Origin: Candidatus Effluviviaceae Genus I sp.
GTDB taxonomy: Bacteria; Joyebacterota; Joyebacteria; Joyebacterales; Joyebacteraceae
Direction: 5' to 3'
Length of the DNA: 64,000 nucleotides
NCBI GenBank assembly: GCA_016867725.1
Contig: VGIX01000002.1
Span: 36,314-100,313 of the forward strand
The translations under genes and the position numbers were made by a program. Positions 10,101 to 48,210 of the stretch are shown in pieces. The notes under the pieces were generated by a model. The model saw nothing but the letters and a program-made list of their open reading frames with translations, was not told where the DNA came from and searched no databases. Position 1 is the first letter of the stretch, and each line of letters opens with the position of its first letter.

Positions 10101-13100
10101 CGAAGATCAACGGGACGGAGCGGAACGAGCGGCTGGACACCGAGGACCTGAACGGGAACTGGTACCTGGACACCGAGAGCAGGTACTGGGAGATCGAGAT
10201 CGACCTGTCGGATCCCACGTACGTAGTGCAGGACAACGGCGACCTCGTGAGCGGCAACCACTGGCGGCTCTACCGGGTGCCGCTGGACAGGGCCGTCCCG
10301 GTGAACGGGATGGCCGACTGGGTTGCGGTGAAGTCGGCGCGCGTGTGGCTCACCGGGCTCAGGCAGGGCGGCCTCCCGCTCATGATCGGTTCCATGGACA
10401 TCGTGGGAAGCCAGTGGGAGGCCGACGGCATCCGGGACTCGACGGGTGCGGTCGTTCCCGAAGCCCAGATGGGGAACATGAGCTTCCGGGTCACCGCGAA
10501 GAACACCAAGGAGAACGCGGACTACTACCCGCCGTTCGCCGTCGAGATCAACGAGGAGACCGGGATCCCCGAGCGCGAGCAGTCGCTCGTTCTCCTCTAC
10601 GAGAACATCGAGTCCGGCTTCAGCGGCGCCGCGCGGAAGGTGTACTACTCCGACGATGACTACACGGGGTACGAGTCCCTTGAGCTGTTCGTCCACGGGA
10701 GCGCGGGGATCGACCCGGGATCGGTGTTCTTCGTCCGCATCGGCGCCGACACGGTCAACTACTACGAGTACAGCTTCGAGGTGAGCCCGGGGTGGCGGCA
10801 GCGGTTCGGCTCGCTCTCGAACAGCCTGATCGTGCCGCTGACCTCCTTCAGCGATCTCAAGCTCCCTCCGTTCGACACGGCGGACGCGGCTGAGGTCCTT
10901 GGAGACACGACCTCGGTGAAGCGCGAGACGTTCAGGCGGGTGGGGTGGCCGTCGCTGTCCAGGGTGCGCAGGCTCATGGTGGGGGTGCGGAACGCGTGGG
11001 CCGACTCGCTGAGCAGGGACGTGTCGGGCGAGATCTGGGTGGACGACATCAGGCTCACGAACGTCCGCAAGGAGATCGGCTTCGCGGAGCGCGCGACGGT
11101 CAACGTGAGGATGGCGGATCTCGCCGAGCTCAACGTCGACGCCCGCTTCGTGGATCGCGACTTCCATTCGATCAAGCAGACGAGGGGGAGCGGGCAGGAC
11201 AACGCGAGCTACAACGTCACCGGTACGGTGAACGCGGACCGCTTCGTGAGCGCACTCGGCATCGCGGTGCCGGTCAACGTCGTGTGGAGGCGTTCGGTGT
11301 CCCGTCCGCGCTTCTCGACCGGGTCCGACATCGTGTTGGGCGCGGAGGACAGCGACCGCGAGCGCACGGAGAGCGCGGAGCGCAGCGTCGCCGTGTCCTT
11401 CTCCAGGAAGCGGCAGTCGCCGGACTTCTGGACTCATCTCCTCATGGACGGTCTGTCGCTCCGTGCCTCGGCGGCCGCCACCGAGCGCCGGGCTCCGACG
11501 CGGATCGACACGACGGGGGCACTTCGCGGACGGTTGGCCTACCGGTACTCGCCTGAGCGGACGGGGATGACGCTCTATCGGAGCACGAAGCTCTTCCTCA
11601 AGCCCACGAGCTTCCGCTTCGGCGTCGAGTCGCAGGTGTCCAGGAGTCTGAGCTATGACGTCACGCGCTCGGGGTCGCAGACGCTCAGAGCCGACACGCA
11701 CGACAAGAAGCTCGACGCGGACGCGGGCGTTGACTTCCAGCTGCTCGACAACCTCTCCACGTCGCATTCCGTGACCGCGCGGCGCGATCTTGCCCTGCAG
11801 AGCCGGCCGTGGGCGGGCGTGAACATCGGGACGGAGACGCAGCGGCAGTACAGCAACAGCCTGAGCTTCAACCCGAAGTTCGGCGCCTGGCTTTCACCTC
11901 AATACAGCTTCAGCTCCACGTACACCGACAACCACGGACCGGAGGTCCAGCGCGCGGGAGACCCGTGGGGGGTCCACGACCTGCGCGCGCAGACGACCCA
12001 GCAGATCTCGGCCAGCTTCGACCTGAAGAAGATCTTCGGCGTCGGCGCGCCTCACCCGCCCCGCCCGGAGCCGGGAAGGGAGGCGGCCGGCCGCGGGGAG
12101 CGGGGCGGCCCTCCGAGGCCCGAAGGCGAGGAGCGACCGGACGAGGAGACCCCTCCGGAAGAGCCGGCTCCGGAGCAGCCGACTCCTGAGCAGAGGCAGG
12201 AAGAGGAAGCGGGGCCCGATCTGCGGAGACTCCTCGACCCCGTGCTGGCGTTCGTGCGCAACATGGACGCCATCGAGGGCAGGCACACGGTGCGGTGGAG
12301 CTCGCGATTCGACCGCGTGCCGCCGGACCGAGTGCCCGGGTGGCAGTATCGCCTGGGCCTCTTGCCCGGCGAGGGAGCGGATGACCGCACCGAGGAGCGG
12401 TCTCTCGACCTGGGGACCGGGGCGAAGCTCACGCAGGACATCCGTCTCAAGGCCGACTACAAGCGTTCCGTGACCGGGCGATGGTACAGGAACACCGTTG
12501 CCGACTCGGTGAACCTCCTGTCGGCGACCGAGGGTGTGACCCAGACCCGCAAGGCGACGCTGTCGTGGGGGGGCATCGAGAGGATCGGTCCGCTCAAGAC
12601 GGTGTTCACGACCGTTCGCGCGCGCAGCGGCGTCGAGTTCAAGTCATCGTACTCGGGGCCCGAAAACGAGCCGACGACGAGAGGCGATGGGCTCGCCCTT
12701 GCGCCGCTCGTCTCGATCGAGACCACGTTCAAGAACGGGCTTTCGGGGAACCTGTCGTGGGAGCGCAGGCGCTCGAGGAACTACAGCCTGCGCGGAGTCG
12801 GGTCCGTCACCGAGGACGAGGCGAGCTCCACAAGCCTCGCCCTCAAGTACCGGTTCTCCGCGCCGCAGGGTCTCAGGCTGCCGTTCTTCGGGGAGAAGCT
12901 GAAGTTCCAGAGCAATCTGGACTGCTCGCTCACGCTCAAGACGTCGGCGAGGGTGTCGCGGACGGCCATGGATGAGGCCGGGCTCGTGCTGGCGGCCCCG
13001 ACCTCCTCGGTCAAGGACTTCTCGATCGCCGGGGACGCGACCTACAGCTTCTCCAGGAGCGTGTCCGGGGGGCTTCAGATCACCTTCTCTCAGAGCCGCG

Positions 13101-13165
13101 ACGAGAAGCGCGATCAGACGCGGAGGACCATAGGGGTGCACCTGACGGCCGAGTTCAAGTTCTGA
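7103..13165 (+). CDS. Giant outer-membrane beta-barrel protein, SprA-like (candidate type IX secretion translocon), 2020 aa
   Basis: Cleavable signal peptide MGLRRAVTLVLLALSAALAPPRVTAHG. About 2000 aa with amphipathic beta-strand periodicity throughout. The C-terminus ends ...HLTAEFKF, an aromatic OMP beta-signal. The size matches the SprA/Sov family. The upstream 5924-7102 part of the track ORF is rejected because it overlaps lptF and the promoter. Confidence 0.5.
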   Translation: MGLRRAVTLVLLALSAALAPPRVTAHGEAADPELPAAQTAAVDSLFLLPQELDQGPFLPAAPDTVSEAPAEPVETSVRPEMRPWAGRGVPVKVPFQFFRPWSVGPASIRRGLSPGWTALPSAAPSGAPFERRLAVDLAGRAAIVTRAGTAASFTSYAAPLPEYERAIRGVSARDAWGSTVTRKLKEQSARSSRGLLDIDIPMPLPEPIVRAIGAGANLKVRGSERITFGGRTSYLVDALDQESGPPSKWPQLDMQQQLTVNLEGTIGDKIHVYVDHRSGGTSYGTGKANQIRVRYEGEEDEVLQTIELGEVNLSLPGAEFVSYSGSQEGLFGAKMTAKLGKLDVVGIASKAEGKSAGASFAGTSEADSLTIKDIAYKARTYYAIDSDVLKYANVGLRSVRVYVDDRNGANDLTTGASPGRAYLTAPAGSVPPPTGPSQRGMFDELVELQDYLVDYGSGILEFLSPVNANHVLAVSYVRLDGGAVGGHDGDTLRIKLIKKDDRVAGTPWEPVRLHELKNVYDLGATNIPEDGFALEIRKRTPSGEILDNQDGVPYVRILGLDTHGPGGGGDPDGVVDREWIDFEKGHLFFPHFTPFCPEYDATDFYYAPGGGPDPIYTADELDPKNCAVYSREVFLPGDDVYFLVVKYDRPRTTFYLGQMNIIENSEVVRLNGVALTRGVDYTIYYPAGQLTLLSEEAKQPDARVTVDFDYQPFGIGGEKTLLGVRGLYNWSENVKLGTTWMYQSKGAPEDRPRLGEEPSRTVLGDVNLTATFAPGVLTRIADAVPLVSTDAPSKVTVSAEAAVCVPDPNTKGFVTIDDMEGVKNVNMLGVTRRLWTWASVPAATGVAAEDRMRISWYNPDRKVREGDLHPELTGQEANDIRTVLEIDYDAAAPSSSWAGLMRLLSKTGMDYSRDEFIEVWVHDNGYREGKLLIDLGTVSEDFYPLLAPNGTLDSEDVDQNGFDASEDTGLDRVVGVDGQNVPGDDGDDDYEYTYGTSDYSKINGTERNERLDTEDLNGNWYLDTESRYWEIEIDLSDPTYVVQDNGDLVSGNHWRLYRVPLDRAVPVNGMADWVAVKSARVWLTGLRQGGLPLMIGSMDIVGSQWEADGIRDSTGAVVPEAQMGNMSFRVTAKNTKENADYYPPFAVEINEETGIPEREQSLVLLYENIESGFSGAARKVYYSDDDYTGYESLELFVHGSAGIDPGSVFFVRIGADTVNYYEYSFEVSPGWRQRFGSLSNSLIVPLTSFSDLKLPPFDTADAAEVLGDTTSVKRETFRRVGWPSLSRVRRLMVGVRNAWADSLSRDVSGEIWVDDIRLTNVRKEIGFAERATVNVRMADLAELNVDARFVDRDFHSIKQTRGSGQDNASYNVTGTVNADRFVSALGIAVPVNVVWRRSVSRPRFSTGSDIVLGAEDSDRERTESAERSVAVSFSRKRQSPDFWTHLLMDGLSLRASAAATERRAPTRIDTTGALRGRLAYRYSPERTGMTLYRSTKLFLKPTSFRFGVESQVSRSLSYDVTRSGSQTLRADTHDKKLDADAGVDFQLLDNLSTSHSVTARRDLALQSRPWAGVNIGTETQRQYSNSLSFNPKFGAWLSPQYSFSSTYTDNHGPEVQRAGDPWGVHDLRAQTTQQISASFDLKKIFGVGAPHPPRPEPGREAAGRGERGGPPRPEGEERPDEETPPEEPAPEQPTPEQRQEEEAGPDLRRLLDPVLAFVRNMDAIEGRHTVRWSSRFDRVPPDRVPGWQYRLGLLPGEGADDRTEERSLDLGTGAKLTQDIRLKADYKRSVTGRWYRNTVADSVNLLSATEGVTQTRKATLSWGGIERIGPLKTVFTTVRARSGVEFKSSYSGPENEPTTRGDGLALAPLVSIETTFKNGLSGNLSWERRRSRNYSLRGVGSVTEDEASSTSLALKYRFSAPQGLRLPFFGEKLKFQSNLDCSLTLKTSARVSRTAMDEAGLVLAAPTSSVKDFSIAGDATYSFSRSVSGGLQITFSQSRDEKRDQTRRTIGVHLTAEFKF

Positions 13166-14100
13166 TGCGGATGACCCGAGCACGCGAGACCCGGCGGCGT
13201 TGCGCGCGCCGAAGGCGCGGCGGCCGTCTGGTCGCCGTCGCGCTCGCGGCGGCGTGGGCGGCCACGCTGACGGGGTGCGGGCGGCCGCAGTTCGACGGGG
13301 AGCGCGCGTTCCGCTTCCTGGAGCGCCAGTGCGCGATGGGGCCGCGCGCGCCGGGCAGCGCCGGCCACGCTGAGGCGGAGCGCTGGCTCATCGAGACGCT
13401 CGAGGGGCTCGCCGACGAGGTGGCGGTCCAGCGGTTCACCGCCGTCTCCCGCGGGCGTGAGGTGGGTTTCGCGAACGTCATCGCGTCGTTCAGACCGGCG
13501 GCCCGGGAACGGGTCCTGTTCGCGACGCACTGGGACACGCGGCCGGTGGCAGACCTCGACCCGGACCCCGCGCGGCGGGGAACGCCGATCCCCGGGGCGA
13601 ACGACGGCGCCTCCGGAACGGCCGTGTTGCTGGAGCTCGCGACGCTCATGAGCGAACGGCCGCCGAAGGTCGGCGTCGATCTGGTGTTCTTCGACGGGGA
13701 GGACGGCGGAGGGGCCGGCGGGCTTGCGGGGTGGTGCCTCGGGTCGACGCACTACGCGGCCCGCCTCGGCGACTACTGCCCGCGCCTCGCGGTCGTCGTA
13801 GACATGGTCGGCGACGCGGACCTCTCCATTCCCGTGGAGCCCAACTCTCTGGCCGGCGCTCCCGAGGCGGTGGCGACCGTCTGGGCTGCGGCGCGGCGGG
13901 CCGGCTCCCTCGCCTTCGAGGACCGGCGGGGGCGGGCCATGTTCGACGACCACATCCCGCTCCTCAGGGCCGGGCTCCCGGCCGTGCTCGTCATCGATGC
14001 GGAGTACGAGTTCTGGCACACTCTCGCGGATACGCCGGACAAGTGCAGCCCGCGCAGCCTCACCGAGGTCGGGCGCGTGCTGGTCCGGCTGACCCACTAG
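13165..14100 (+). CDS. Glutaminyl-peptide cyclotransferase-like M28 zinc enzyme, lipoprotein
   Basis: Lipobox AATLTGCG. HWDTRPVAD, GANDGASGTAVLLELA, VFFDGEDGG, DDHIPLLRAGLPAVLVI and WHTLADTP align with the QC motifs FFDGEEAF, DDHIPFLRRGVPVLHLI and WHTMDDN. The start overlaps the SprA-like stop (TGATG). Confidence 0.75.
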   Translation: MRMTRARETRRRCARRRRGGRLVAVALAAAWAATLTGCGRPQFDGERAFRFLERQCAMGPRAPGSAGHAEAERWLIETLEGLADEVAVQRFTAVSRGREVGFANVIASFRPAARERVLFATHWDTRPVADLDPDPARRGTPIPGANDGASGTAVLLELATLMSERPPKVGVDLVFFDGEDGGGAGGLAGWCLGSTHYAARLGDYCPRLAVVVDMVGDADLSIPVEPNSLAGAPEAVATVWAAARRAGSLAFEDRRGRAMFDDHIPLLRAGLPAVLVIDAEYEFWHTLADTPDKCSPRSLTEVGRVLVRLTH

Positions 14101-14147
14101 CCTCTGAGCGGGCCCGCAGGGGGCCATGCGTCCTCCCAACTTTGCCC

Positions 14148-14176
14148 TTGCCGGAAACCGGCCCTCGTGCTAGCTT
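14148..14176 (+). promoter_or_regulatory. Promoter of the rimP-nusA-infB operon (TTGCCG-N17-TAGCTT, extended -10 TGcTAGCTT)
   Basis: TTGCCGgaaaccggccctcgtgcTAGCTTggtc. The decamer GTGCTAGCTT is also found upstream of rpsO. Confidence 0.45.
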
Positions 14177-14236
14177 GGTCGTCGGGAAGTGGGCGGGAGC
14201 CCACTTTCTCGGTATTGGGCCCCGGGGGGGAGAGCC

Positions 14237-14749
14237 ATGGCCAAGGACGAGGAGAGGCTCTTCGAGCTTGCCCGCGGCACCGTCGAGGGCATGGGGTACT
14301 GCCTCGTCGCCGTCGAGGACCGGCCCGAGCACGGCCGGCGGGTGCTGCGGTTCATCATCGACCACCCCCGTGGCATCGGGATCGAGGACTGCGCGGCGGT
14401 GAGCCGCGAGCTCGGCTACGTGCTCGACGGGGCGTCGGGCATCGACGAGCGGTACGCCCTGGAGGTAAGCTCGCCGGGAACCGACAGGGAGCTTCGGACC
14501 GAGCGGGAGTACCTGCACTTCGCCGGGCGGGAGGTCCGCATGGTCTTGCGCGAGCCTGTGGGCGGCAGGTCCGTCGTCCAGGGGACGATCGTCGGCGTGG
14601 GCCCCGACGGCGTGCGCGTGAGGCCGCGCGGGGAGGCCGAGGACGTCGTCGTGCCGCTCGGCGGCATTTCCCGCGCAAGGCTCGTCGGCGAGGAGAAACC
14701 GCGTCCCGAAGCGGTTCGGGACGCTCCATCACGAGGGTGCGGTTCATGA
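14237..14749 (+). CDS. rimP: Ribosome maturation factor RimP
   Basis: LEVSSPGTDRELRTEREY motif (DUF150). RBS GGGGGGAGAG lies before the ATG at 14237. Stop overlaps the nusA start (ATGA). Confidence 0.8.
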   Translation: MAKDEERLFELARGTVEGMGYCLVAVEDRPEHGRRVLRFIIDHPRGIGIEDCAAVSRELGYVLDGASGIDERYALEVSSPGTDRELRTEREYLHFAGREVRMVLREPVGGRSVVQGTIVGVGPDGVRVRPRGEAEDVVVPLGGISRARLVGEEKPRPEAVRDAPSRGCGS

Positions 14750-16248
14750 ACACGGGTGTCCTGGAGGCTCTGAGGAGGATGGCGAGGGAGAAGCAGCTGG
14801 ACCAGGCGCTTCTCATGGAGGCGCTCGAGGCCGGGCTTCTCTCGGCTGCGCGGAAGAAGTACGGGCTCGAGGCCGGTGTCGAGGTGGTCGTCGACGACAA
14901 ACACGACACGCTGGGGGTCTACCTCAAGAAGGCCGTCGTGGAAGAGACGGACGACGACGTCATGGAAATCGAGCTCGACGAAGCGCGCGAGATCGATCCG
15001 AGCGCCACGGTGGGGGACACCGTCAGGGTCGAGGTGCCCTTCGACGAGTTCGGGCGCAACGCCGTGCAGGCCGCCAAGCAGATCGTCGTGCAGCGCGTCC
15101 GCGAGGCGGAGCGCGAGCAGATCTACGACGAGTACCAGGACCGGATCGGCGAGATCGTGACCGGTGACGTGCAGCAGATCGAGCGAGGCGGGATCGTCGT
15201 GAACCTTGGGCGGACCGAGGCGCTGCTGCCGGCGAGGGAGCAGATCCGTCGGGAGCGATACCGCCAGGGAGACAGGGTGCGCGCCTACCTCCTGTCCGTG
15301 GAGAAGACGACCAAGGGGCCCCAGATCATCCTGTCGCGAACGCAGCCCAACTTCCTCAAGAAGCTCTTCCGGATGGAGGTGCCCGAGATCTACGACTCGG
15401 TCGTCGAGATCATGGCGATCGCGCGGGAGGCCGGCGGCCGCTCCAAGGTCGCCGTTGCGTCGCACGACGAGCGCGTCGATCCGGTCGGCGCGTGCGTCGG
15501 CGTCAAGGGCTCCCGGATCCAGACGATCGTCCGCGAGCTCTCCGGAGAGAAGATCGACATCGTGCCGTGGAGCTCCGACCCGTCCGTGCTCGTGTCGAGG
15601 GCCCTCAACCCGGCCAAGGTCTCGAAGGCCATCCTCAACGACGCGGAGCACTCCGTGCGCGTGATCGTGCCGGACGACCAGCTCTCTCTCGCGATCGGCA
15701 AGGGCGGGCAGAACGCTCGACTGGCCGCGAAGCTGACCGGGTGGAAGATCGACATCGTCGGCGAGACGGAGCATGCCAGGGACCTCGAGATCGGCCTCGC
15801 GCAGCGCGTCGGCGTTGGAGAGCTGCCCGGCGTGGGCCCCAAGTTGGCGGCGGCGCTCGCCGTGGCGGGCTATCGTTACGTCAGGGACCTGGACGGCGTG
15901 ACGACCGAGGACCTCCTCAAGGTGCCGGGTGTCGGCGAGAAGACCGCGGAGAAGATATCCATTTCGGTCGCCGCGGTCCTCGAGGTTCTCGAGGAGGAGA
16001 AGCAGGAGATGCTCCGCGAGATGGAGGAGCGTGCCCGCGCTGAGGCGATGCGCCGCGCTGAGGCTCAGGAGCCGCGCTACGACGCGGAGCCGTCGGAGCC
16101 GGGCGAGGCGGACGCCGAAGGGGAAGAGCCCGAGGAGGGCGCGGAGGAGGGCGACGACGCTGCGCCCGCCGACGCCAGCGACGAAGGCGCAGTGGAGCAG
16201 GGCGAAGCCGCCGCGACGGAGGGCGAAGCCCAGCCTGAGGAGCGGTAG
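14746..16248 (+). CDS. nusA: Transcription termination/antitermination factor NusA
   Basis: MNTGVLEALRRMAREKQLDQALLMEALEAGL. S1, KH (LAIGKGGQNARLAAKLTGWKIDI) and HhH regions are present. Acidic C-terminal tail. Confidence 0.9.
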   Translation: MNTGVLEALRRMAREKQLDQALLMEALEAGLLSAARKKYGLEAGVEVVVDDKHDTLGVYLKKAVVEETDDDVMEIELDEAREIDPSATVGDTVRVEVPFDEFGRNAVQAAKQIVVQRVREAEREQIYDEYQDRIGEIVTGDVQQIERGGIVVNLGRTEALLPAREQIRRERYRQGDRVRAYLLSVEKTTKGPQIILSRTQPNFLKKLFRMEVPEIYDSVVEIMAIAREAGGRSKVAVASHDERVDPVGACVGVKGSRIQTIVRELSGEKIDIVPWSSDPSVLVSRALNPAKVSKAILNDAEHSVRVIVPDDQLSLAIGKGGQNARLAAKLTGWKIDIVGETEHARDLEIGLAQRVGVGELPGVGPKLAAALAVAGYRYVRDLDGVTTEDLLKVPGVGEKTAEKISISVAAVLEVLEEEKQEMLREMEERARAEAMRRAEAQEPRYDAEPSEPGEADAEGEEPEEGAEEGDDAAPADASDEGAVEQGEAAATEGEAQPEER

Positions 16249-38724: not shown

Positions 38725-38813
38725 GGGAGGGCTAGACCTAACTGGTAAGGCGGCGGTCTTGAAAACCGCTGGGCTTTCGAGCCCGTGGGGGTTCGAGTCC
38801 CTCGCCCTCCGCC
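38725..38813 (+). tRNA. tRNA-Ser (anticodon TGA)
   Basis: Acceptor ggagggc/gccctcc + g + CCA. Anticodon loop cTTGAaa. Long variable arm. T-loop ggttcgagtcc. Confidence 0.75.
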
Positions 38814-38846
38814 AGAGGAAGCAAGCGATGGCAGGCCGTGAGCCCG

Positions 38847-38937
<91 letters not shown>

Positions 38938-38944
38938 CCGTTCA

Positions 38945-39021
38945 AGCGCCCATAGCTCAACTGGATAGAGCGTCTGGCTACGGACCAGAAGGCTGGGGGT
39001 TCGACTCCTCCTGGGCGTACC
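38945..39021 (+). tRNA. tRNA-Arg (anticodon ACG)
   Basis: gcgcccatagctcaactggatagagc. Loop ctACGga. gggggttcgactcc. Ends tgggcgtacca. Confidence 0.8.
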
Positions 39022-39293
39022 ACATGATGAGGGCTCCCTGTCTGCCGGCGGGGAGCCCTCGTCCTTTGTGGGTCGTGCGGGCCGCAACGCGGGGTCTGAT
39101 CGTGGATTCGCTGTCCCGCCTCTTGCGGACCGGCACGAGTTATGCATTGAGCATCCGCACGACCGTGTCACAGTGGCGTCCGGTCTCAAGGCCTGGGCGT
39201 CACGCGGGCCCCGGACGGCCGCCCGCTGACCGACCGATGCCGCCGGCGTGGAGCCTGCTCTCCCGGTGGGGAGCTCTCCGAAGGAGTGGCGGG

Positions 39294-40487
39294 ATGAAGA
39301 CGTGCAGACTGACGGTGCTCGTCGCGCTGACCGTCGGCGCGTGCGTGCTGTTCTCCGGCTGTTCGGGGGATGGCGGCGGCAAGTCGGCCGACCAGCTCTA
39401 CGACGAGGGCATGGGGTCGCTCGAGAGCGCGCTGAGCGGCGCGGACATGGACCAGGAACCCTGGAACTGGGGGGCGGACGTATCCGAGGCACACGAGCGC
39501 TTCGATGACGCGCTTGCGCAGAACCCGAACCACTGCGGCGCCAACCTCATGGCGGCGGCGACGCGGCTTCTCATGGTCGTCTCGAATCCGGAGCTTGGCG
39601 ACATCCTCGACACGCTCTTCCCCGAGGGCCCCAGGGCGTCCCGCGCTTCCGGCATCCTCTGGTATGCGAGGAAGCCGGACCTCCGAGGTCTCTACCAGCG
39701 GTTCTCGGACGGCGGCAGGCAGGACTTCCACTTCTCCCAGCTCCAGAACTACATCGAGCTGCAGGTGCTTCCCGCTCTCACGTACGCGGACCAGCGCCTC
39801 ACGAGATTCGAAGACATGAACTGCGCAATCTGGGTCCGTGTCGGTGAGGACTCCCTGGGACAGGACGTTCTCGCCGAGGTGGACGCGACCGACGCCTACT
39901 TCCTGCACACGGTGGTGGACGCGCTGCAGGCCGGGTGCAGCGTCGCCGTGTCGTACAACATCGACATCGACGACGGGCAGACACCGCAGTACCTGATCGA
40001 GTCGGACGCCGACTTCCTGACGCTGAGACGACCCGCGGCCATGGCGACAGCGTATGACGAACTCCTCGCGCTGGCCGCGCACCTGAGAGCGGCGTGCGAC
40101 GCGCTCGAGGCGGAGACCGACGATCAGAGCGACGATGTCTTCACGGAAACCGACGGCTACGTGCCGCTGGACGACATGTTCGGCGGCGGGGCCGTCGAGG
40201 AGATCCGGGACATCGCCGACGCCATCGAAGACGCGCTGGTCAGCGGGCTTGTGTTCAACCCCTCGGGAGACGGAGGGCCGGACATCGACGTGCTCATCAG
40301 CTTCGATGCGCTCTTCAACGATCCCATCGCCGATCTCAGGAACTACTTCCCGGCGCACTCGTGGCCCCAGCCGGATGAGATCGCGATCGACCGCCCCATC
40401 GACTTCCCGGATCCCGAGTTCCATGGGATCACCCCGGGCATGGACAACGCGGAATGGGAGCTGATCATCCAGTGGCTGGAGGAGTAG
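39294..40487 (+). CDS. Hypothetical acidic lipoprotein (no recognisable family)
   Basis: AAGGAG RBS 7 nt before the ATG. Signal plus lipobox LFSGCSG. 397 aa, Asp/Glu-rich (…IDIDDGQTPQYLIESDADFL…), ends WELIIQWLEE. Confidence 0.55.
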   Translation: MKTCRLTVLVALTVGACVLFSGCSGDGGGKSADQLYDEGMGSLESALSGADMDQEPWNWGADVSEAHERFDDALAQNPNHCGANLMAAATRLLMVVSNPELGDILDTLFPEGPRASRASGILWYARKPDLRGLYQRFSDGGRQDFHFSQLQNYIELQVLPALTYADQRLTRFEDMNCAIWVRVGEDSLGQDVLAEVDATDAYFLHTVVDALQAGCSVAVSYNIDIDDGQTPQYLIESDADFLTLRRPAAMATAYDELLALAAHLRAACDALEAETDDQSDDVFTETDGYVPLDDMFGGGAVEEIRDIADAIEDALVSGLVFNPSGDGGPDIDVLISFDALFNDPIADLRNYFPAHSWPQPDEIAIDRPIDFPDPEFHGITPGMDNAEWELIIQWLEE

Positions 40488-40647
40488 GGCGAGCCGGTTT
40501 CGGCGGCGGGGTCGCTTGGCGCACGGCGGGAAACGTCGCAGCGCGCCGTGAGGCCGGCGCGGGCATCATGAGATGCCCGCGCCGATGCGTCTCGCTCGTG
40601 GCGCAGGACGGCGCGCGCGGTCGGCCGCAGACGCCGGAGGAAGACGC

Positions 40648-41790
40648 GTGATCAGGATCATCCACACGTCGGACGTTCACCTCGGCGCGCCGCTCGGATG
40701 GCTGGGCCGCAGGGCCGCCGAACAGCGCGACGCGCTGAGGAAGGCGTGGACGGCCGTCGTCGACCGGACCCTGTCGGAGCGGGCGGATTGCCTCATCGTT
40801 GCCGGCGACCTCTTTGACTCGAACAGCCCGCCGGCGTCGGTCGTGCGCTTCGTTCTTAAGGAACTCGACAGGCTGGGCACCGCGTCCGCCACGGAGGTCG
40901 TGATCCTCCCCGGATCGCACGACTTCCTGAGCCTGGGGTCCGTCTACGGGAGCTACGAGCGCGAGTTCAGGCGCCTGCCGCACGTGCACGTCCTCGGGCT
41001 GGACGGGCGGTCGTGTGTCGTGCTCAGGAAGTCCGGCATGGCCGTCCACGGCAACCCGCCGCGCTCGAACCGCTCCTCGGAGCGGCAGCTCGCGCGGCTG
41101 CGGCCCCGGGACGACAGCCGGTGGAACGTCGCCGTCGCACACGGAACCGTCGAGGTCGTTCCGGGCGCGGCCGAGGACCATCCGATCGCTCTTGCGGACC
41201 TCTCCTCGATGGAGTGGTCCTATGTCGCGCTCGGCCACTGGCACTCGTGGCGCGAGATCGAGGGAACCACGGCGCCGGCGGTCTATCCGGGCGCGCCCGA
41301 GACGATCGCGGTCGATCAGGTCGGATCCGGGCACGCCGCGCTCGTCGTGCTCGATGAGACGGGCGTCACGACGTCGAGGCTGCGACTCGGCACGCGCTCG
41401 GTCGTCGAGGCGGAGGTCGACGTCACCGCGGCCCCGGACGCCGCGGAGGTGGCGACCCGCGTCCGCAGGGCCGTGCCGCCGGGCGCCGACACGATCGTCC
41501 GCCTTGACCTCACGGGTCTTCTGGATCTCGGCTCGGGGTTCGATGAGGCCGAGCTCGTCGAGGAACTCTCCTCGGACTACTTCCACGTGGCCCTGCGACA
41601 GCGCGCGTTCCGGGTCGCGAGCGACGAAGCCTGCTTGCGGGACCTCCCGGAGCGGTTCGTCATCGGCCGCTTCGCGCGCATCCTGAGCGAGCAGCTCGAG
41701 TCCGCAAAGAGCGAGGAGGAGCGGCAGGAGCTGGAGGACGCCCTCAAGCTGGGCGTGGCGCTGCTCCAGGGGAAGGACGTGATCGCGTGA
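40648..41790 (+). CDS. SbcD/Mre11-like calcineurin-family nuclease (metallophosphoesterase)
   Basis: IRIIHTSDVHLG, IVAGDLFD and ILPGSHD...GHWH motifs. GTG with GGAGG 7 nt upstream. Stop overlaps the next start. Confidence 0.75.
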   Translation: MIRIIHTSDVHLGAPLGWLGRRAAEQRDALRKAWTAVVDRTLSERADCLIVAGDLFDSNSPPASVVRFVLKELDRLGTASATEVVILPGSHDFLSLGSVYGSYEREFRRLPHVHVLGLDGRSCVVLRKSGMAVHGNPPRSNRSSERQLARLRPRDDSRWNVAVAHGTVEVVPGAAEDHPIALADLSSMEWSYVALGHWHSWREIEGTTAPAVYPGAPETIAVDQVGSGHAALVVLDETGVTTSRLRLGTRSVVEAEVDVTAAPDAAEVATRVRRAVPPGADTIVRLDLTGLLDLGSGFDEAELVEELSSDYFHVALRQRAFRVASDEACLRDLPERFVIGRFARILSEQLESAKSEEERQELEDALKLGVALLQGKDVIA

Positions 41791-43901
41791 GGATCCGCCG
41801 CATCAGGCTCGTGAACTTCAAGAGGTTCTCCGACCACGAGATCGTCCTCGATCCACGGCTCAACCTCATCGTCGGGCCCAACGAGTCGGGGAAGAGCACG
41901 GTGGTTGACGCCATCGGCACGGCGCTCTTCGGCGATGTCGCATCCAAGGCGCGCGCGGTGAAGGACCTTGAGCGGTGGGGCGCGTCCGGTGCGGTGAGGC
42001 TCGAGTTCGACTTCGATCACGGGACCGAGAGCTGGCGCCTGATCAAGGACTTCGGCGCGGGGCGCGTGGAGCTCACGCAGGCCGGCGACGACCGTCGCAT
42101 CAGCGATCGCGGCGAGGTGGACCGCCGCGTGCGCGAGATGATCGGGTTCGCGACGAGGGACGCGTTCGAGTCCGTCGCGGCAGTGCGACAGGGTGAGCTC
42201 GCCGCGCTCGAGGGACGGGCCGGGTCGGCGCGGCGGAGCGAGCTCGTGCCGATGATCGAACGGAAGATGACGAGCTCGAGCGGCGCCGTCGACGCGGCGC
42301 GCGTCCTCGAGCGGATCGACGGGGAGGTCGCGCGCATCAAGGTGGGCCTCGAGCGCCCGGCGAAGGTCCCCGGCCCCCTCCAGGCCCTCCGCGAGGAGCG
42401 GCACCGGCTGGCCAAGGAACGCGCGAAGCACGAGGCAGGCTGGGCCGACAACCTCCGCTCGCGCAACGAGCTGAACAGGCTGCGCGAGGAGCTCGAGGAC
42501 AACGAGCGGCACCTGTCTCAGATCGACGTAGCGCTCAAGCACGAGGAGAAGCGGCAGGACGACCTCTCGACGCTCGAGCGTGTCCGGAAGGCGCTCGATG
42601 AGAAGGAAGCGAAGATCGGCAGGATCCGCAAGCTCAAGGCGGACCTCGCGGCCGTCTGGGACCGGATTCCGGCGGGATCGAACGAGTATGAGCGGCTTGC
42701 ACGGGCTGCGAAGGCCGATCTGGACGCCGCCGAGCGGCGACTGGCGGACCTGAGCGACAGGGCGCCGTCGGGTCGACTGGGCTCGGTGGGCGGCCGCGCG
42801 GGGGTCGGGGCAGGGTCGGCCATCGTGACCGGCATCGTGCTCTTCCTCGCGGCGGTGTTCGGCGGCGATCTCAGGCTTCGCGTCCCCATGGCCGCCGCGG
42901 GCCTCGCGGCGACGCTCGTCGGCCTTCTCCTGTCGCGACGGGCGCTCCGGATGTGGGCGTTCGCGCGGGAGTTCGACAGGGCCACGTTCGAGCGAGAAAA
43001 GCGCGAGGCGCTGCTGGCGACAGCGCTCTCCAAAGTCGGGTGCTCAAGCTACGCGGACTTCGAGCGCGCGGCGGGAGCGCAGGAGCGCGACCGGCACAGC
43101 GCCGAGGTCTGGAACGCCATGCTCGCTGAGATCTGCGGTGGACAGGACCACGACGCGGTGGAGGAGATGCTCCAGAGGGAGGCGGCCTCGTTGTCGCGCC
43201 AGAAGCAGGAGCTTGAGGGTGGCGCAGGGACCGCTCCGACGGGAGGACCGCTCGCGCCCTCGGAGTACGCGAAGCTCCGCGCCGAACGCGAGCAGAGAAC
43301 CGAGAGGCTCAAGGCGCTCCGCGAGTCGATCCCGCGGCTCGAGGGCCAGCTCGAGCAGGCCGAGGCGGGCGAGACCATCCCGGACCTCGAGGCGAAGTTC
43401 GAAGACGTCGAGCGGGAGATCGAGCGGCTCGACCGCAGACTGCGCGTGCTCACCATCGCGCGCGAGGCTCTGGCAAGCGCCATCGCGAGCACGAACAAGG
43501 AGGCCGCCTCCGCCCTCGAGCCCCTGGTGAGCCGCGTGCTCGGGCGCGTCACGCTGGACCGCTACGAGGCCGCCCGAGTCGGGCATGACCTCGACGTGAG
43601 CGTCACGAACCCGGAGCGCCGCTCCGCGGGGCCCGCGACGCTGGGCGCCGGCGACCTCTCCGCCGGGACCGCCGATCAGCTGTACCTGGCCATCCGCTAC
43701 GCGCTCCTTGAGTTCCTCTCTACGGCTGAGGGCGCGCCCTTCGTCCTGGACGACGCGCTCGTCAACTGCGACCCCGAGCGTCGCGCCGCCGGCCTCTCCC
43801 TGCTGCGCGAGATCGCGAAGGAACGTCAGGTGATCCTCTTCTCGTGCGAGGATCGGGGACGTGAGGCCGCCGACCAGGTCGTGCTCCTTCCGGCGCTCTG
43901 A
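41787..43901 (+). CDS. SbcC/Rad50-like ABC ATPase with coiled coils and a central 2-TM hairpin (YhaN-like)
   Basis: Walker A GPNESGKST. C-terminal signature LSAGTADQ, Walker B FVLDDAL and H-loop. The centre has AGVGAGSAIVTGIVLFLAAVFGG and VPMAAAGLAATLVGLLLSRRAL instead of a CxxC hook. Confidence 0.7.
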   Translation: MRIRRIRLVNFKRFSDHEIVLDPRLNLIVGPNESGKSTVVDAIGTALFGDVASKARAVKDLERWGASGAVRLEFDFDHGTESWRLIKDFGAGRVELTQAGDDRRISDRGEVDRRVREMIGFATRDAFESVAAVRQGELAALEGRAGSARRSELVPMIERKMTSSSGAVDAARVLERIDGEVARIKVGLERPAKVPGPLQALREERHRLAKERAKHEAGWADNLRSRNELNRLREELEDNERHLSQIDVALKHEEKRQDDLSTLERVRKALDEKEAKIGRIRKLKADLAAVWDRIPAGSNEYERLARAAKADLDAAERRLADLSDRAPSGRLGSVGGRAGVGAGSAIVTGIVLFLAAVFGGDLRLRVPMAAAGLAATLVGLLLSRRALRMWAFAREFDRATFEREKREALLATALSKVGCSSYADFERAAGAQERDRHSAEVWNAMLAEICGGQDHDAVEEMLQREAASLSRQKQELEGGAGTAPTGGPLAPSEYAKLRAEREQRTERLKALRESIPRLEGQLEQAEAGETIPDLEAKFEDVEREIERLDRRLRVLTIAREALASAIASTNKEAASALEPLVSRVLGRVTLDRYEAARVGHDLDVSVTNPERRSAGPATLGAGDLSAGTADQLYLAIRYALLEFLSTAEGAPFVLDDALVNCDPERRAAGLSLLREIAKERQVILFSCEDRGREAADQVVLLPAL

Positions 43902-44127
43902 CGGTCCGAGCCTCGGCGACCGACTGAGCGACCGCTCACTTCTCACCAGATACGCCCCCCCCAAGGCCGGCCGGACCGCTCCCGTGGCATGGGACTTGCA
44001 TTTCACAGTGCCCTGAGCGACCGATGGCTAGAACGCTGATGGGGCACACCATGGAGGGGCGAGGCGCCGCCAGTCCCCCGGACAGGCGTCCGGGGACGGC
44101 TCGGAGTTCGCCACGCCGAACTGCATC

Positions 44128-46248
44128 ATGCACGAGACCAGGGTGACGGTGGGCGGCAACTGCATGACCGGGAACGACATTCCGGGCCGGTCGTGGTGGT
44201 TGGCCGCGGCGGTCGGGCTCACGATGCTCGCCATCGCGACGACGGGGATCACGCGGCTCGACTGGGGAGCCGTCGGGATCATGACCGCGCTGGGGCTCGG
44301 AACCGGCCTCTTCGCGTTCCCCATCGGCCGCGGCTCCTTCGTCTCGTTCAGCGCGGCCGTGTTCGTCGCGTCGCTGGCGCTCTTCGGGACATCGGTGGCA
44401 GTGTGGGTCGTCGCCGCCACGACCGTGATCCTCAACACGCTTGTCTTCCGCAGGAACCTGCGATCGGCGCTGGCCGACACGGGCGCGCAGGTCATCGCCG
44501 CCGCGGCGGCGGGACTCGCGTACCGGGCGATCGGAGGAAGGCTCGTGCCCACGAGCATGACCCTGCTGGACGCGGCCCGCTGTTTCGTCATGTTCGTCAC
44601 GTTCGGCGCCGTGGCTTCTACGATGCGCGCCATCGCCTCTGTCACCGTCCGGAACCCGCTGTGGGAGTACGCGCGGTGGATCGCCGGCCGCGGCGTGATC
44701 ATCGAACTGGCGATGCTCCCGCTCGCGCTCCTGCTCATCGCCTCGTACACGCCCGGCGAGCCCGCGACCTTCCCGCTGCTCGCCATCGTGCTCATGGTAT
44801 CGAGCGCGGCCGGCAAGGCGCTGTGGGATGCGCGCGAGGCGCTGCTGAAGCGCGTCGGCGAGCTCAAAGTGCTCAACGCGGCGGCGCGCGCGCTGTCCGA
44901 AGCCAGGCATCTTCCCGACGTGGCGACGACGCTGCGCGGGTACGCGGCTCAGCTGCTCGGAGCGCGGACGGTCGCGCTCTCGCTGCTCCACGAGACCACG
45001 GGCCAGGTCGAGTCGTTCGCGACGCCGGACGACGCCGCGCCAGCCGGGGGACCGCACTGCCCCTCCGCGGCGGAGGCCTGGGTCATGAGACACCGTCTGC
45101 CGCTCGTCACCGCGGATCCGGCGGCTCACTGCCCTGAGGAGTGGCTGCGTTCTCCGGAGAGCCGCCCGGCGACGGGAACGTGGCTCGGAGTGCCCCTGAT
45201 GAGGGGGGAGAAGCTGATCGGCGTGCTGTCCGTCCTCGGAAGCGGGCGCAGGTCGCTCTCGCAGCAGGATGCGGAGCTCCTGAGCGCTCTCGGCAATCAG
45301 GTGGCCCGAGTGGTCGACAACGTTCGTCTCTACGAGAGGCTCGAGGAGTCGCGCGCCGATCTCGAACGGTGGAACAGGACGCTCGAAACGAGGGTCGAGG
45401 AACGCACGCGCGAGCTCGACAGGGCGCTCGCCTCGCTCGAGGAGCTCAACGACGACCTCGAGCGGCGCGTCGAGGAGCGGACGAAGGAGCTTCAGGACAT
45501 CCAGGAGAAGGTCGTGCAGTCGGGTCGTCTCGCCGCGGTGGGGGAACTGGCGGCGGGCATCGCGCACGAGCTGAACAACCCGCTCGCCGGCATTCTCGGC
45601 TACTCGCAGTACGACCTCGAGCGCGTGATGGAGCGTCAGGACCAGGGGCTGTCGGCCGACGAGGCGCGGCACATCGCGACGCACATGCGACACATCGAGC
45701 GGGAGGCCCAGCGCTGCAAGCGCATCGTGGAGAACCTGCTCACGTTCTCGCGAGGGGCGAGGTCGGGCACGGCGACCCTGGATGTCAACGAGATCGTGGA
45801 GAGCACACTGGAGTGCACCGAGCGGCAGCTGGCCATGCGGGGCATTGAGGTCGACGTCGAACTCGATCGCGCGCTCCCGTGCATCGTGGGCGACCCACAG
45901 GGCCTTCAGCAGGTGTTCGCCAACATCGTCCTGAACGCCCGCAACGCCATGGCGAGCGGCGGCAGGCTCACGGTTCGGACATGGAAGACGGAGAGCGGGA
46001 GCGGCGCGGGGCAGGTTGCCGTCAGGTTCGAAGACACCGGCGACGGCATCACGAACGGTGATCTGATGCGGGTGTTCGAACCGTTCTACACGACCCGCGC
46101 AGACAAGGAAGGCGCCGGGCTCGGGCTGTCGGTGAGCTATGGCATCGTGCGCGAGCACGGCGGCGAGATCGACGTGGAGAGCGACAAGGGTCGCGGAGCG
46201 GCCTTCACGGTGCGTCTGCCCGTGAACACGGCCGGCCCGAGGGCCTGA
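44128..46248 (+). CDS. Sensor histidine kinase (polytopic N-terminal membrane domain, GAF, HisKA, HATPase_c)
   Basis: Six or more TM helices, GAF-like region, AAVGELAAGIAHELNNPL H-box, and N/G1/G2 boxes (LNARNAM, FEDTGDGI, GAGLGLS). The start may be the ATG at 44164. Confidence 0.8.
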   Translation: MHETRVTVGGNCMTGNDIPGRSWWLAAAVGLTMLAIATTGITRLDWGAVGIMTALGLGTGLFAFPIGRGSFVSFSAAVFVASLALFGTSVAVWVVAATTVILNTLVFRRNLRSALADTGAQVIAAAAAGLAYRAIGGRLVPTSMTLLDAARCFVMFVTFGAVASTMRAIASVTVRNPLWEYARWIAGRGVIIELAMLPLALLLIASYTPGEPATFPLLAIVLMVSSAAGKALWDAREALLKRVGELKVLNAAARALSEARHLPDVATTLRGYAAQLLGARTVALSLLHETTGQVESFATPDDAAPAGGPHCPSAAEAWVMRHRLPLVTADPAAHCPEEWLRSPESRPATGTWLGVPLMRGEKLIGVLSVLGSGRRSLSQQDAELLSALGNQVARVVDNVRLYERLEESRADLERWNRTLETRVEERTRELDRALASLEELNDDLERRVEERTKELQDIQEKVVQSGRLAAVGELAAGIAHELNNPLAGILGYSQYDLERVMERQDQGLSADEARHIATHMRHIEREAQRCKRIVENLLTFSRGARSGTATLDVNEIVESTLECTERQLAMRGIEVDVELDRALPCIVGDPQGLQQVFANIVLNARNAMASGGRLTVRTWKTESGSGAGQVAVRFEDTGDGITNGDLMRVFEPFYTTRADKEGAGLGLSVSYGIVREHGGEIDVESDKGRGAAFTVRLPVNTAGPRA

Positions 46249-46279
46249 GGCGAGGGCCGCAGCCGATCGGGGGAAACAC

Positions 46280-47248
46280 GTGCTGGCGCCGGGAGAGCTG
46301 GTGGGCAGGCCGGAGGGGGAGAAGACACCCCCTCCTCGCGTCCTGATCGTGGACGACGAGGAGATCATGCGCGAGTTCCTCAGGGAGGTGCTCGGGGACG
46401 ACGGCTATGCCATCGAGCTTGCCTGCTCCGGCCGCGAGGCCGTCGAGAAGATGTCCGCGTCACAGTACGATGTGGTCGTGACGGACATCGTGATGCCGGA
46501 GCTGGACGGGCTCGGCGTGGTCGCCGCCGCCAAGAAGCTGCCGTACGACGTCGACGTCATTGTGATGACCGGCTATGCGTCCATGGACACGGCCGTCGAA
46601 TCCATGAAGCTGGGCGCGCGCGACTACATCACCAAGCCGTTCAACATCGACCAGATCAGGATCATCGTGTCCAATGCGCTGGCCGAGCGCGAGCTCAAGC
46701 GGAAGGCCGCGGAAGGGGAGTTCTACAAGGAGCTCTCCCGGAAGGACGGGCTGACCGACCTCTACAACCACAGGTTCTTCCACCAGCTTCTCGAGACGGA
46801 GGTCGGACGGGCGGCGCGATACAACCGCGTCGTCAGCCTGCTCATGATCGACATCGACGACTTCAAGACGTACAACGACGCGCACGGACACCCGGCGGGC
46901 GATGCGGCGCTGCGCAGACTGGCCTACCTGCTCCGGCACTCGTCGCGGAACTGCGACTACGTGGCGCGATACGGAGGCGAGGAGTTCGCCATCATCGTAC
47001 CCGAGGTCGCTGCCGACGCCGCGCTTCGGATGGGCGAGCGCATCCGGAGCATCATCGAGTCCTCGGAGTTCGAGGGCGAGGACATCATGCCCGGCGGCCG
47101 TCTCACGATCAGCATCGGCGTCGCGACGTTTCCCTCGCATGCGCAGAGCCAGGACGATCTCCTGACGCACGCCGACCGCGCGCTGTACCAGGCGAAGACC
47201 GCCGGGAAGAACGCGGTCGTGCTCTACGGCGGTGAGAGCGTGAACTAG
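46280..47248 (+). CDS. Response regulator with receiver and GGDEF diguanylate cyclase domains
   Basis: RVLIVDDEEIMREF...VVTDIVMPELDG receiver. GGDEF motif RYGGEEFAII. Confidence 0.85.
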   Translation: MLAPGELVGRPEGEKTPPPRVLIVDDEEIMREFLREVLGDDGYAIELACSGREAVEKMSASQYDVVVTDIVMPELDGLGVVAAAKKLPYDVDVIVMTGYASMDTAVESMKLGARDYITKPFNIDQIRIIVSNALAERELKRKAAEGEFYKELSRKDGLTDLYNHRFFHQLLETEVGRAARYNRVVSLLMIDIDDFKTYNDAHGHPAGDAALRRLAYLLRHSSRNCDYVARYGGEEFAIIVPEVAADAALRMGERIRSIIESSEFEGEDIMPGGRLTISIGVATFPSHAQSQDDLLTHADRALYQAKTAGKNAVVLYGGESVN

Positions 47249-47912: not shown

Positions 47913-48002
47913 GGTGGGGTGACGGAGTTGGTCGATCGTGGCGGTCTCGAAAACCGTTGTACCCTCTGGGTACCGTGGGTTCGAATCCCACCCCCACCGC
48001 CA
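47913..48002 (+). tRNA. tRNA-Ser (anticodon CGA)
   Basis: Acceptor ggtgggg/ccccacc + g + CCA. Loop ctCGAaa. Long variable arm. gggttcgaatccc. Begins 15 nt after the tadA stop. Confidence 0.75.
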
Positions 48003-48012
48003 GTCGAGACCC

Positions 48013-48104
<92 letters not shown>

Positions 48105-48134
48105 CCAGTCGACTCTGTAGGACCAAGGACCTGT

Positions 48135-48210
48135 GGGGATGTAGCTCAGCTGGGAGAGCGCTGCCTTCGCAAGGCAGAGGTCGGCGGTTCGATCCCGCTC
48201 ATCTCCACCA
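48135..48210 (+). tRNA. tRNA-Ala (anticodon CGC)
   Basis: ggggatgtagctcagctgggagagcg with the G3:U70 identity pair. Loop ttCGCaa. ggttcgatccc. catctccacca. Confidence 0.8.

Follow-up and report, generated by a model that had tools for sequence, protein, structure and literature searches.

The canonical SbcCD and Mre11-Rad50 complexes combine a nuclease with a Rad50-type ATPase of the ATP-binding cassette (ABC) class, and the tip of the ATPase coiled coil is marked by a CxxC zinc hook. In Bacillus subtilis, another pair of this kind has been described under the names SbcE (YhaN) and SbcF (YhaO). SbcE has no CxxC, and its central domain is hydrophobic, conserved in all homologues and completely insoluble when isolated (PMC2811018, 2009). 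Its neighbour SbcF is SbcD-like and gives a two-hybrid interaction with SbcE; mutants show sensitivity to double-strand breaks and a mild transformation deficiency, and SbcE gathers at the poles of competent cells (PMC2811018). The searchable literature on YhaN/SbcE/SbcF, on COG4717/PF13514 and on membrane-anchored Rad50-like proteins yielded nothing beyond this 2009 paper, and membrane anchoring is undiscussed there. The present analysis concerns a gene pair for an Mre11-like nuclease and a Rad50-like ATPase of 704 amino acids (aa), located in a 64,000-nucleotide stretch of contig VGIX01000002.1 (positions 36,314 to 100,313, hereafter the window) from a Candidatus Eisenbacteria bacterium. In this ATPase, a hairpin of two apolar helices of about 20 residues, joined by a loop of about 7 residues, replaces the CxxC zinc hook at the tip of the coiled coil, and the replacement is conserved throughout the family to which the pair belongs.

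The gene pair and its family

The open reading frame (ORF) listing, Pfam, the PDB searches and the AlphaFold2 models examined by Foldseek all agree with the first-pass annotation of the locus, which had described an Mre11-like nuclease gene coupled through a GTGA overlap to a gene for a 704-aa ABC ATPase. The nuclease matches Pfam Metallophos at 52.4 bits and reaches 77.6 bits on TIGR00619 (sbcd), just below the cut-off of 77.65, and among solved structures it is closest in sequence to T. maritima Mre11 and E. coli SbcD. It is identical (100%, full length) to the product of a metagenome-assembled genome annotated at NCBI as 'DNA repair exonuclease'. The AlphaFold2 model, built on 44 homologues, has a predicted local distance difference test score (pLDDT) of 91.3, and the top 50 PDB matches of this model are all Mre11/SbcD structures (E-values down to 1e-15, TM-scores of 0.6-0.7, 360-410 columns). 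As modelled, the protein has the Mre11/SbcD fold, comprising a phosphodiesterase domain, a capping domain and a C-terminal helix-loop-helix. By analogy with the Rad50-binding domain of Mre11, the helix-loop-helix is probably the ATPase-binding domain; the most conserved residues of the C-terminal part are V338, G340, R344, A365 and G369.

The ATPase is matched by Pfam AAA_23, SMC_N and AAA_27 (PF13514). A PDB search with its family profile is headed by archaeal Rad50 heads (3aux at 5e-28), and the AlphaFold2 model (pLDDT 83.8) finds Chaetomium Rad50 (7zr1_D, 1.2e-17) as its top Foldseek match, with JetC and LmuB structures among the weaker ones. The predicted structure is a Rad50-type split ABC head joined by long helices. 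Walker A, the signature LSAGTADQ and Walker B can be read from the translation, as had been stated earlier. The protein stays far under every curated SbcC, Rad50, SMC and RecF cut-off, scoring 28.3 against 478.5 on TIGR00618 (sbcc), 96.5 against 700 on the Rad50 model NF003034 and 17 against 454 on TIGR00606. Homologues number in the hundreds for the nuclease and the ATPase alike, and the 4-nt GTGA overlap recurs at loci L001-L006 and at many loci of other phyla; the pairing is thus not a product of chance. No second SMC-like or Mre11-like gene was found in a search of the window.

The resemblance to the Bacillus pair, proposed in the first-pass annotation, turned out to be real homology. Comparison by hhalign of the Eisenbacteria profile with 14 YhaN-type proteins of Bacillales and Lactobacillales gave a probability of 100% (E 3.2e-51, 677 columns) over the full length, with hydrophobic centre aligned to hydrophobic centre. 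The AAA_27 match of the window ATPase scores 45.1 bits against a gathering cut-off of 22 but is confined to positions 1-58 of the 206 in the profile. All close homologues have a precomputed PF13514 assignment, and four of them carry the JGI label 'uncharacterized protein YhaN'; NCBIfam holds no YhaN-specific model. A Limosilactobacillus protein is reached by BLASTP at 8e-18 through the C-terminal head and 2e-11 through the N-terminal head, and it matches PF13514 over the full length of the profile (72.5 bits, positions 1-202 of 206). Its gene lies between a penicillin-binding protein gene and prsA-ecsA-ecsB, a setting that we take to resemble the yha region of the B. subtilis map. Homologues of this protein occur in Viridibacillus (966 aa), Psychrobacillus (904 aa) and Paenibacillus, and these, together with the Lactobacillaceae proteins, possess two central hydrophobic helices, the signature LS.GT.EQLY and an Asp-Asp Walker B. 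Because the profiles are homologous, hairpin is aligned to hairpin and the motifs are common to both, the window pair is assigned to the YhaN/SbcE family; judged by its sequence, it is a compact, 704-aa form of the known and barely studied YhaO/YhaN (SbcF/SbcE) type.

The family is large and widespread. In a scan of one genome per species, the coupled pair with its central hydrophobic peak was found in Eisenbacteria, Actinomycetota, Ignavibacteria, Zixibacteria, Dojkabacteria, Saccharibacteria, Desulfuromonadales, Armatimonadota, some Clostridia and Limosilactobacillus; overall, more than 10 phyla are represented, including lineages of the candidate phyla radiation (CPR). The window pair shares with B. 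subtilis SbcE/SbcF (PF13514, COG4717) the SbcD-like gene directly 5' of an SMC-like ATPase gene, the missing CxxC, the hydrophobic central domain, the signature LS.GT.(D/E)QLY and the Asp-Asp Walker B. In contrast, it comes from another phylum and another gene neighbourhood, without neighbours of the yhaM/prsA type, and its clade is known from sequence alone. The window ATPase is also about 260 aa shorter than the Bacillales forms (704 against 904-966 aa) and would therefore have shorter arms, it reads FSCE instead of FTCH at the H-loop, and its partner nuclease has GSHD instead of GNHD. With canonical SbcCD/Mre11-Rad50, the pair has in common the Rad50-type ABC head, the Mre11 fold, the adjacent coupled genes and the C-terminal helix-loop-helix of the nuclease. 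It departs from SbcC/Rad50 in that the ATPase has a hydrophobic hairpin at its apex instead of a zinc hook and lacks both the catalytic Glu and the H-loop His. As sbcD precedes sbcC in E. coli too, the nuclease-first gene order is no distinction.

The hairpin at the coiled-coil apex

The two strongest 19-residue Kyte-Doolittle (KD) peaks of the window ATPase, 2.29 at residue 340 and 1.82 at residue 364, lie at the midpoint of the chain, and the AlphaFold2 model places there two helices (334-358 and 362-417) with a turn of 3 residues between them. The helix pair proposed earlier at the hook position is therefore present, and it recurs in 45 of 45 aligned relatives. No CxxC occurs anywhere in the protein, which has only 4 Cys in all. 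Among 120 matches of the first search, a CxxC was seen in P0018 alone, outside the hydrophobic hairpin, and a central one in 1 of 138 further representatives. The central hydrophobic peak is found in all of the approximately 70 close homologues (39-82% identity, 693-755 aa) and in most distant PF13514 proteins (726-1100 aa), always near mid-chain. Moreover, a profile search of 1.84 billion cluster representatives returned 59,758 matches at E<=1e-3 and 4,847 at E<=1e-30, and the peak is present in 135 of the 138 best matches beyond those already collected. The apex hairpin is thus near-universal in a very large Rad50-like family, for which the searchable literature describes only a 'hydrophobic, insoluble central domain'.

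The composition of the hairpin was followed in an alignment of 45 sequences. It is the least conserved part of the protein in sequence, with a majority fraction of 0.40 against 0.67-0.68 in the heads. Its mean KD is nevertheless kept at 1.8-2.0. No homologue has a single Asp or Glu in the 22 residues of helix 1, and the 18 residues of helix 2 contain on average 0.04 acidic and 0.02 basic residues per sequence. The loop has a mean length of 7.4 residues and 0.9 Lys/Arg, compared with 7.6 Lys/Arg in the two flanks, and R384, directly after helix 2, is nearly invariant. Additionally, insertion energies were estimated as a crude, position-independent sum of biological-hydrophobicity values. The two best windows are central in all 45 sequences, with means of -0.2 and +2.5 kcal/mol against +8.9 kcal/mol for the third-best; in the window protein, the first helix has about -0.2 kcal/mol. 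Helices that are apolar, weakly conserved and flanked by Arg/Lys follow the pattern of transmembrane helices and not that of a conserved soluble hinge or hook, and the hairpin is quite probably a membrane anchor.

Alternatively, the helices might not span the membrane at all and might instead form a soluble, buried dimerisation core, such as a hinge-like four-helix bundle, or dip into one leaflet, the complex being cytoplasmic or peripheral. Such an arrangement would agree with the low pLDDT of the hairpin (54-78), with the marginal insertion energy of the second helix (+3.3 kcal/mol in the window protein, on the same crude scale) and with the behaviour of B. subtilis SbcE-YFP (yellow fluorescent protein fusion), which appears as foci, some of them mobile, and not as a membrane stain or rim (PMC2811018). 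However, soluble buried cores are normally conserved in sequence and contain polar positions, whereas here two segments of 22 and 18 residues are essentially uncharged in 45 sequences and hold their hydrophobicity strictly while their sequence drifts. The Lys/Arg enrichment on both cytoplasmic flanks and the insolubility of the isolated SbcE central domain (PMC2811018) also speak against it, and a non-spanning hairpin is considered unlikely.

A clostridial sister group of about 805 aa has a different apex. As in the window, these ATPases are accompanied by a coupled Mre11-like gene, there with GNHD, and their LDDCLV.LDP.R (Walker B/D-loop) and QVIFTTC resemble LDDALVNCDPERR and QVILFSCE of the window protein. 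Unlike the window protein, they show no central hydrophobic peak (maximum KD 0.3-1.3), and their apex is a polar, beta-like segment. An 'ANGY(I/V)(K/R)(I/L)E'-like motif marks this apex, and the loci of the group include L041, L051, L053, L056, L060, L062, L064, L066, L075, L076, L084 and L086.

The arms leading to the hairpin are unequal in the AlphaFold2 model, the ascending helices (197-324) covering about 130 aa and the descending ones (386-588) about 200 aa, with breaks in the descending arm at 418-421, 451-454, 481-490 and 527-530. At the first of these helix breaks, about 35 residues past the second hydrophobic helix, stands a conserved element, SKVGCSSYADFERA (residues ~415-428, window 43029-43070). 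It has an invariant G418, often followed by Cys and then by an acidic/aromatic 'D/E-F' pair, and it is also seen in distant representatives, for example as AGCDGADRF and IGCRGADEFF.

Catalytic sites and the proposed role

Four of the five phosphoesterase motifs are intact in the window nuclease (DxH, GDxxD, H and GHxH), and the remaining one, motif III (GNHD/E), reads GSHD; apart from this motif III Asn, the catalytic positions are intact. GSHD was found in all Eisenbacteria examined, GTHD in relatives from Actinomycetota, Ignavibacteria and Zixibacteria, and the canonical GNHD in those from Firmicutes, CPR and Armatimonadota. With Ser in motif III, the second metal site may be altered. In the ATPase, the signature follows the family form LS.GT.(D/E)Q.Y, which is common to Firmicute YhaN-type proteins. 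Of 138 family representatives, 128 have DD as their Walker B residue pair and 8 have DE. At the H-loop position, C687 and E688 reach a conservation of at least 90% within the clade, and Bacillales relatives carry FTCH there. An Asp-Asp Walker B together with the missing H-loop His suggests slow ATP turnover.

Active sites are altered further in some relatives. Nucleases of an Eisenbacteria subclade read GDLFH, with the last Asp of motif II lost, and GH(L/Q)(R/S)S, with the second His of motif V lost. In Zixibacteria/Ignavibacteria loci L027, L028 and L030, the nuclease active site is fully degenerate and the gene pair and ATPase hairpin are retained; examples of such degenerate partners read GRND, GNGD or GMCD in motif III, ANG in motif IV and GGNYS or CGNDN in motif V. 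Loci L003, L009, L017 and L021 also have altered nuclease active sites.

The reading favoured here, and considered reasonably probable as a whole, is that of a YhaO/YhaN-type Mre11-Rad50-like complex of the core genome, tethered to the membrane and engaged in DNA-end processing, with the hairpin in place of the hook. In this complex, the two helices would cross the membrane as a hairpin whose ends both face the cytoplasm, so that the tip of the coiled coil would be fixed in the inner membrane. The ATPase-nuclease head would hang about 20 nm into the cytoplasm, as estimated from the ascending helix 197-324 of the model. Two hairpins would probably pack in the bilayer and so dimerise the apex, a task carried out by zinc in Rad50/SbcC, and the nuclease dimer would dock on the coiled-coil base through its C-terminal helices. 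ATP-driven engagement of the heads may then clamp DNA ends near the membrane, where the nuclease would trim them; slow ATP turnover would suit a long-lived clamp rather than a fast motor. By homology with B. subtilis SbcE/SbcF, the likely role is the processing of ends of double-strand breaks or incoming DNA close to the envelope, and DNA-end processing as such is rated as roughly an even call.

Several points weigh against this reading, in addition to the low pLDDT of the hairpin, the marginally hydrophobic second helix and the SbcE-YFP foci mentioned above. Membrane insertion is a prediction throughout the family, and the 2009 paper never terms the SbcE domain transmembrane (PMC2811018). The proteins of Viridibacillus and Psychrobacillus served as Bacillales proxies for YhaN of B. 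subtilis 168. The reading does not account for the extra 60-70 residues on the descending side of the modelled coiled coil, and hairpin dimerisation, arm length and DNA-end clamping are all deductions. Furthermore, the Ser in motif III, the Asp in Walker B and the absent H-loop His could mean that catalysis is weak or absent.

The last point leads to a different reading, in which the membrane-anchored pair would be mainly a non-nucleolytic tether or sensor holding DNA at the membrane, with catalysis reduced or lost. The replacement of the motif III Asn by Ser throughout Eisenbacteria, the further losses in motifs II and V of the subclade, the Asp-Asp Walker B without an H-loop His and the three loci that keep pair and hairpin beside a fully degenerate nuclease would fit such a tether. 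However, six of the seven canonical metal or catalytic positions are intact in the window nuclease and nearly invariant in 44 homologues (those listed are D9, H11, D54, H91, H165, H197 and H199), and Walker A, Q-loop, signature and D-loop of the ATPase are invariant. The Asp-Asp Walker B is the family norm, Bacillales relatives included, and the B. subtilis mutant shows repair phenotypes (PMC2811018). A mainly non-nucleolytic role is accordingly held to be improbable for the window pair, and DNA-end processing at the membrane remains the preferred reading.

A stronger version of the membrane reading can be put forward only tentatively. Here, the transmembrane hairpin would be a true functional substitute of the zinc hook, dimerising in the bilayer and closing a DNA-clamping ring whose apex lies in the inner membrane, and the pair would represent an unrecognised system. 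If true, it would couple DNA ends, or DNA crossing the envelope during uptake, conjugation or phage injection, to the membrane, and its part in some lineages would be that of a tether and not of a nuclease, some members having catalytically dead nuclease partners. The natural swap of a hook for a putative membrane anchor offers a way to ask what purpose the Rad50 apex serves, and with it comes a second question, namely whether DNA-end processing takes place at the bacterial envelope.

Genomic setting of the pair

The coordinates of the pair, of its motifs and of the flanking features are collected in Table 1.

Table 1. Features of the gene pair and its surroundings, numbered from the first letter of the window
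Feature	Position	Strand	Details or basis
tRNA cluster Ser-tga, Ser-gct, Arg-acg	38726-39022		
Lipoprotein gene, 397 aa, MKTCRLTVLVALTVGACVLFSGC	39294-40487		LFSGC lipobox; 5' of the pair
Shine-Dalgarno GGAGGA	40636..40641	+	6 nt 5' of the nuclease GTG; direct sequence reading
Mre11/SbcD-fold nuclease gene, YhaO/SbcF-type	40648..41790	+	380 aa, GTG start
Nuclease motif I, D9-V-H11	40672..40680	+	nearly invariant in 44 homologues
Nuclease motif II, G53-D54-L-F-D57	40804..40818	+	homologue alignment
Nuclease motif III, G89-S90-H91-D92	40912..40923	+	Ser for the usual metal-binding Asn; sequence
Nuclease motif IV, His165	41140..41142	+	homologue alignment
Nuclease motif V, G196-H197-W-H199	41233..41244	+	sequence
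Predicted C-terminal helix-loop-helix of nuclease, residues 338-373	41659..41766	+	AlphaFold2 helices 338-351 and 356-373
GTGA start/stop overlap (translational coupling)	41787..41790	+	ATPase GTG with nuclease TGA; ORF listing
YhaN/SbcE-type Rad50-like ABC ATPase gene	41787..43901	+	704 aa, GTG start
Walker A, GPNESGKST, residues 30-38	41874..41900	+	G30, N32, E33, G35, K36 and S37 invariant
Predicted transmembrane helix 1, residues 337-358, RAGVGAGSAIVTGIVLFLAAVF	42795..42860	+	KD peak 2.29; AlphaFold2 helix 334-358
Inter-helix loop, residues 359-365, GGDLRLR	42861..42881	+	predicted non-cytoplasmic, from the inferred topology
Predicted transmembrane helix 2, residues 366-383, VPMAAAGLAATLVGLLLS	42882..42935	+	KD peak 1.82; followed by the conserved R384-R385
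ABC signature, LSAGTADQ, residues 624-631	43656..43679	+	alignment
Walker B, FVLDD, residues 652-656	43740..43754	+	Asp for the usual catalytic Glu; alignment
FSCE at the H-loop position, residues 685-688	43839..43850	+	no His; alignment
tRNA cluster Ser-cga, Ser-gga, Ala-cgc	47913-48210		

The first-pass annotation had correctly seen that two tRNA clusters bound the segment that contains the pair, and it had raised the possibility of an accessory island, with a defence-type function as one option beside membrane-tethered DNA-end processing. The tethered DNA-end function is still the best reading, whereas the defence option falls. A horizontally acquired accessory or anti-phage island with the pair as its effector could draw on the flanking tRNA genes, on PADLOC matches of the ATPase to LmuB, MAD3, JetC, PtuA and GajA and on the adjoining clade-restricted lipoprotein gene with its slightly lower GC content. 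However, the pair and both tRNA clusters, with the same six tRNAs identified by ARAGORN, occur in all nine Candidatus Eisenbacteria relatives examined (43-82% ATPase identity), and the gene order is the same on contigs with homologues at 82, 50, 48 and 44% identity. The conserved 5' block consists of a tRNA-synt_2-family synthetase, glnA, a peptidyl-prolyl isomerase, a tetratricopeptide repeat protein, a hypothetical protein, Aminotran_5, Peptidase_MA_2 and three tRNAs, and the conserved 3' block of a GAF histidine kinase, a response regulator-GGDEF protein, a deaminase, three tRNAs, dnaX, ybaB and recR. GC content is flat, at 0.694 inside the inter-tRNA segment against 0.695-0.711 outside, and a family scan and repeat search found no integrase, transposase or att-like repeat at the locus. 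Long direct repeats are limited to the 3' halves that complete tRNA-Ser genes have in common. These 33 nt, 100% identical between tRNA-Ser(gct) and tRNA-Ser(gga), lie at 38905-38937 and 48071-48103, 9.1 kb apart. They could be mistaken for an att duplication and are not one, because both copies belong to complete tRNA genes conserved in all relatives.

The PADLOC matches are generic. Those of the ATPase cover only residues 1-50 or the generic head, the nuclease has a single weak match (E 7e-4), and none of the neighbours is a defence partner gene of the LmuA/C, JetABD, PtuB or GajB type. With the SMC-type defence ATPases, namely Lamassu LmuB, Wadjet JetC, MADS MAD3, Septu PtuA and Gabija GajA, the window ATPase shares the similarity of its P-loop/SMC head; in contrast to them, the pair has neither their partner genes nor an island context, and such ATPases are not known to carry a transmembrane hairpin at the apex. 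The island reading, given only a very slight chance, is contradicted by these observations, core-genome conservation in relatives being a result that the first-pass annotation had itself named as refuting, and the pair is part of the vertically inherited core genome of the Candidatus Eisenbacteria bacterium. For the window, the annotation is thus corrected in two respects, the genes being of SbcF/SbcE type and not SbcCD, and belonging to the core genome and not to an island.

The lipoprotein gene between the first tRNA cluster and the pair had been called an orphan. This description does not hold, as orthologues exist in L001 (61%) and L002 (46%), in only part of the clade. The protein has an invariant lipobox Gly-Cys and no Pfam, NCBIfam or PADLOC match, and the GC content of its gene is 0.667. 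Since the gene is absent from L003, L004, L015 and L016, it is regarded as a clade-restricted insertion beside the tRNA cluster. The same four loci keep the pair without it, and the lipoprotein was rejected as a possible third subunit; it is an inconstant partner.

The lipoprotein stop is followed, before the nuclease start, by a perfect GC-rich hairpin of 13 bp at 40555-40584, with the arms CGGCGCGGGCATC and GATGCCCGCGCCG, a 4-nt loop and no following T-run. The stem is retained in L001 and, through a compensatory change, in L017. It is probably the terminator of the lipoprotein gene or an element of a 5' untranslated region. A longer nuclease ORF from ATG 40573 was rejected, as this ATG sits within the hairpin, homologues begin with MxRIIHT and the 380-aa form is the NCBI product.

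On the 3' side, the ATPase and GAF kinase genes of most relatives, including L002-L005 (~12200-15200), are separated by a cassette for a CHAT/Peptidase_C25 protein, an extracytoplasmic function (ECF) sigma factor and a putative anti-sigma factor; this cassette is absent in the window (43902-44127) and in L001. In the window, the pair is followed at 44128-47248 by genes for a multi-pass membrane GAF histidine kinase (706 aa) and a response regulator-GGDEF diguanylate cyclase (322 aa). The two ORFs are about 30 nt apart (46248/46280), and their synteny is kept across Eisenbacteria.

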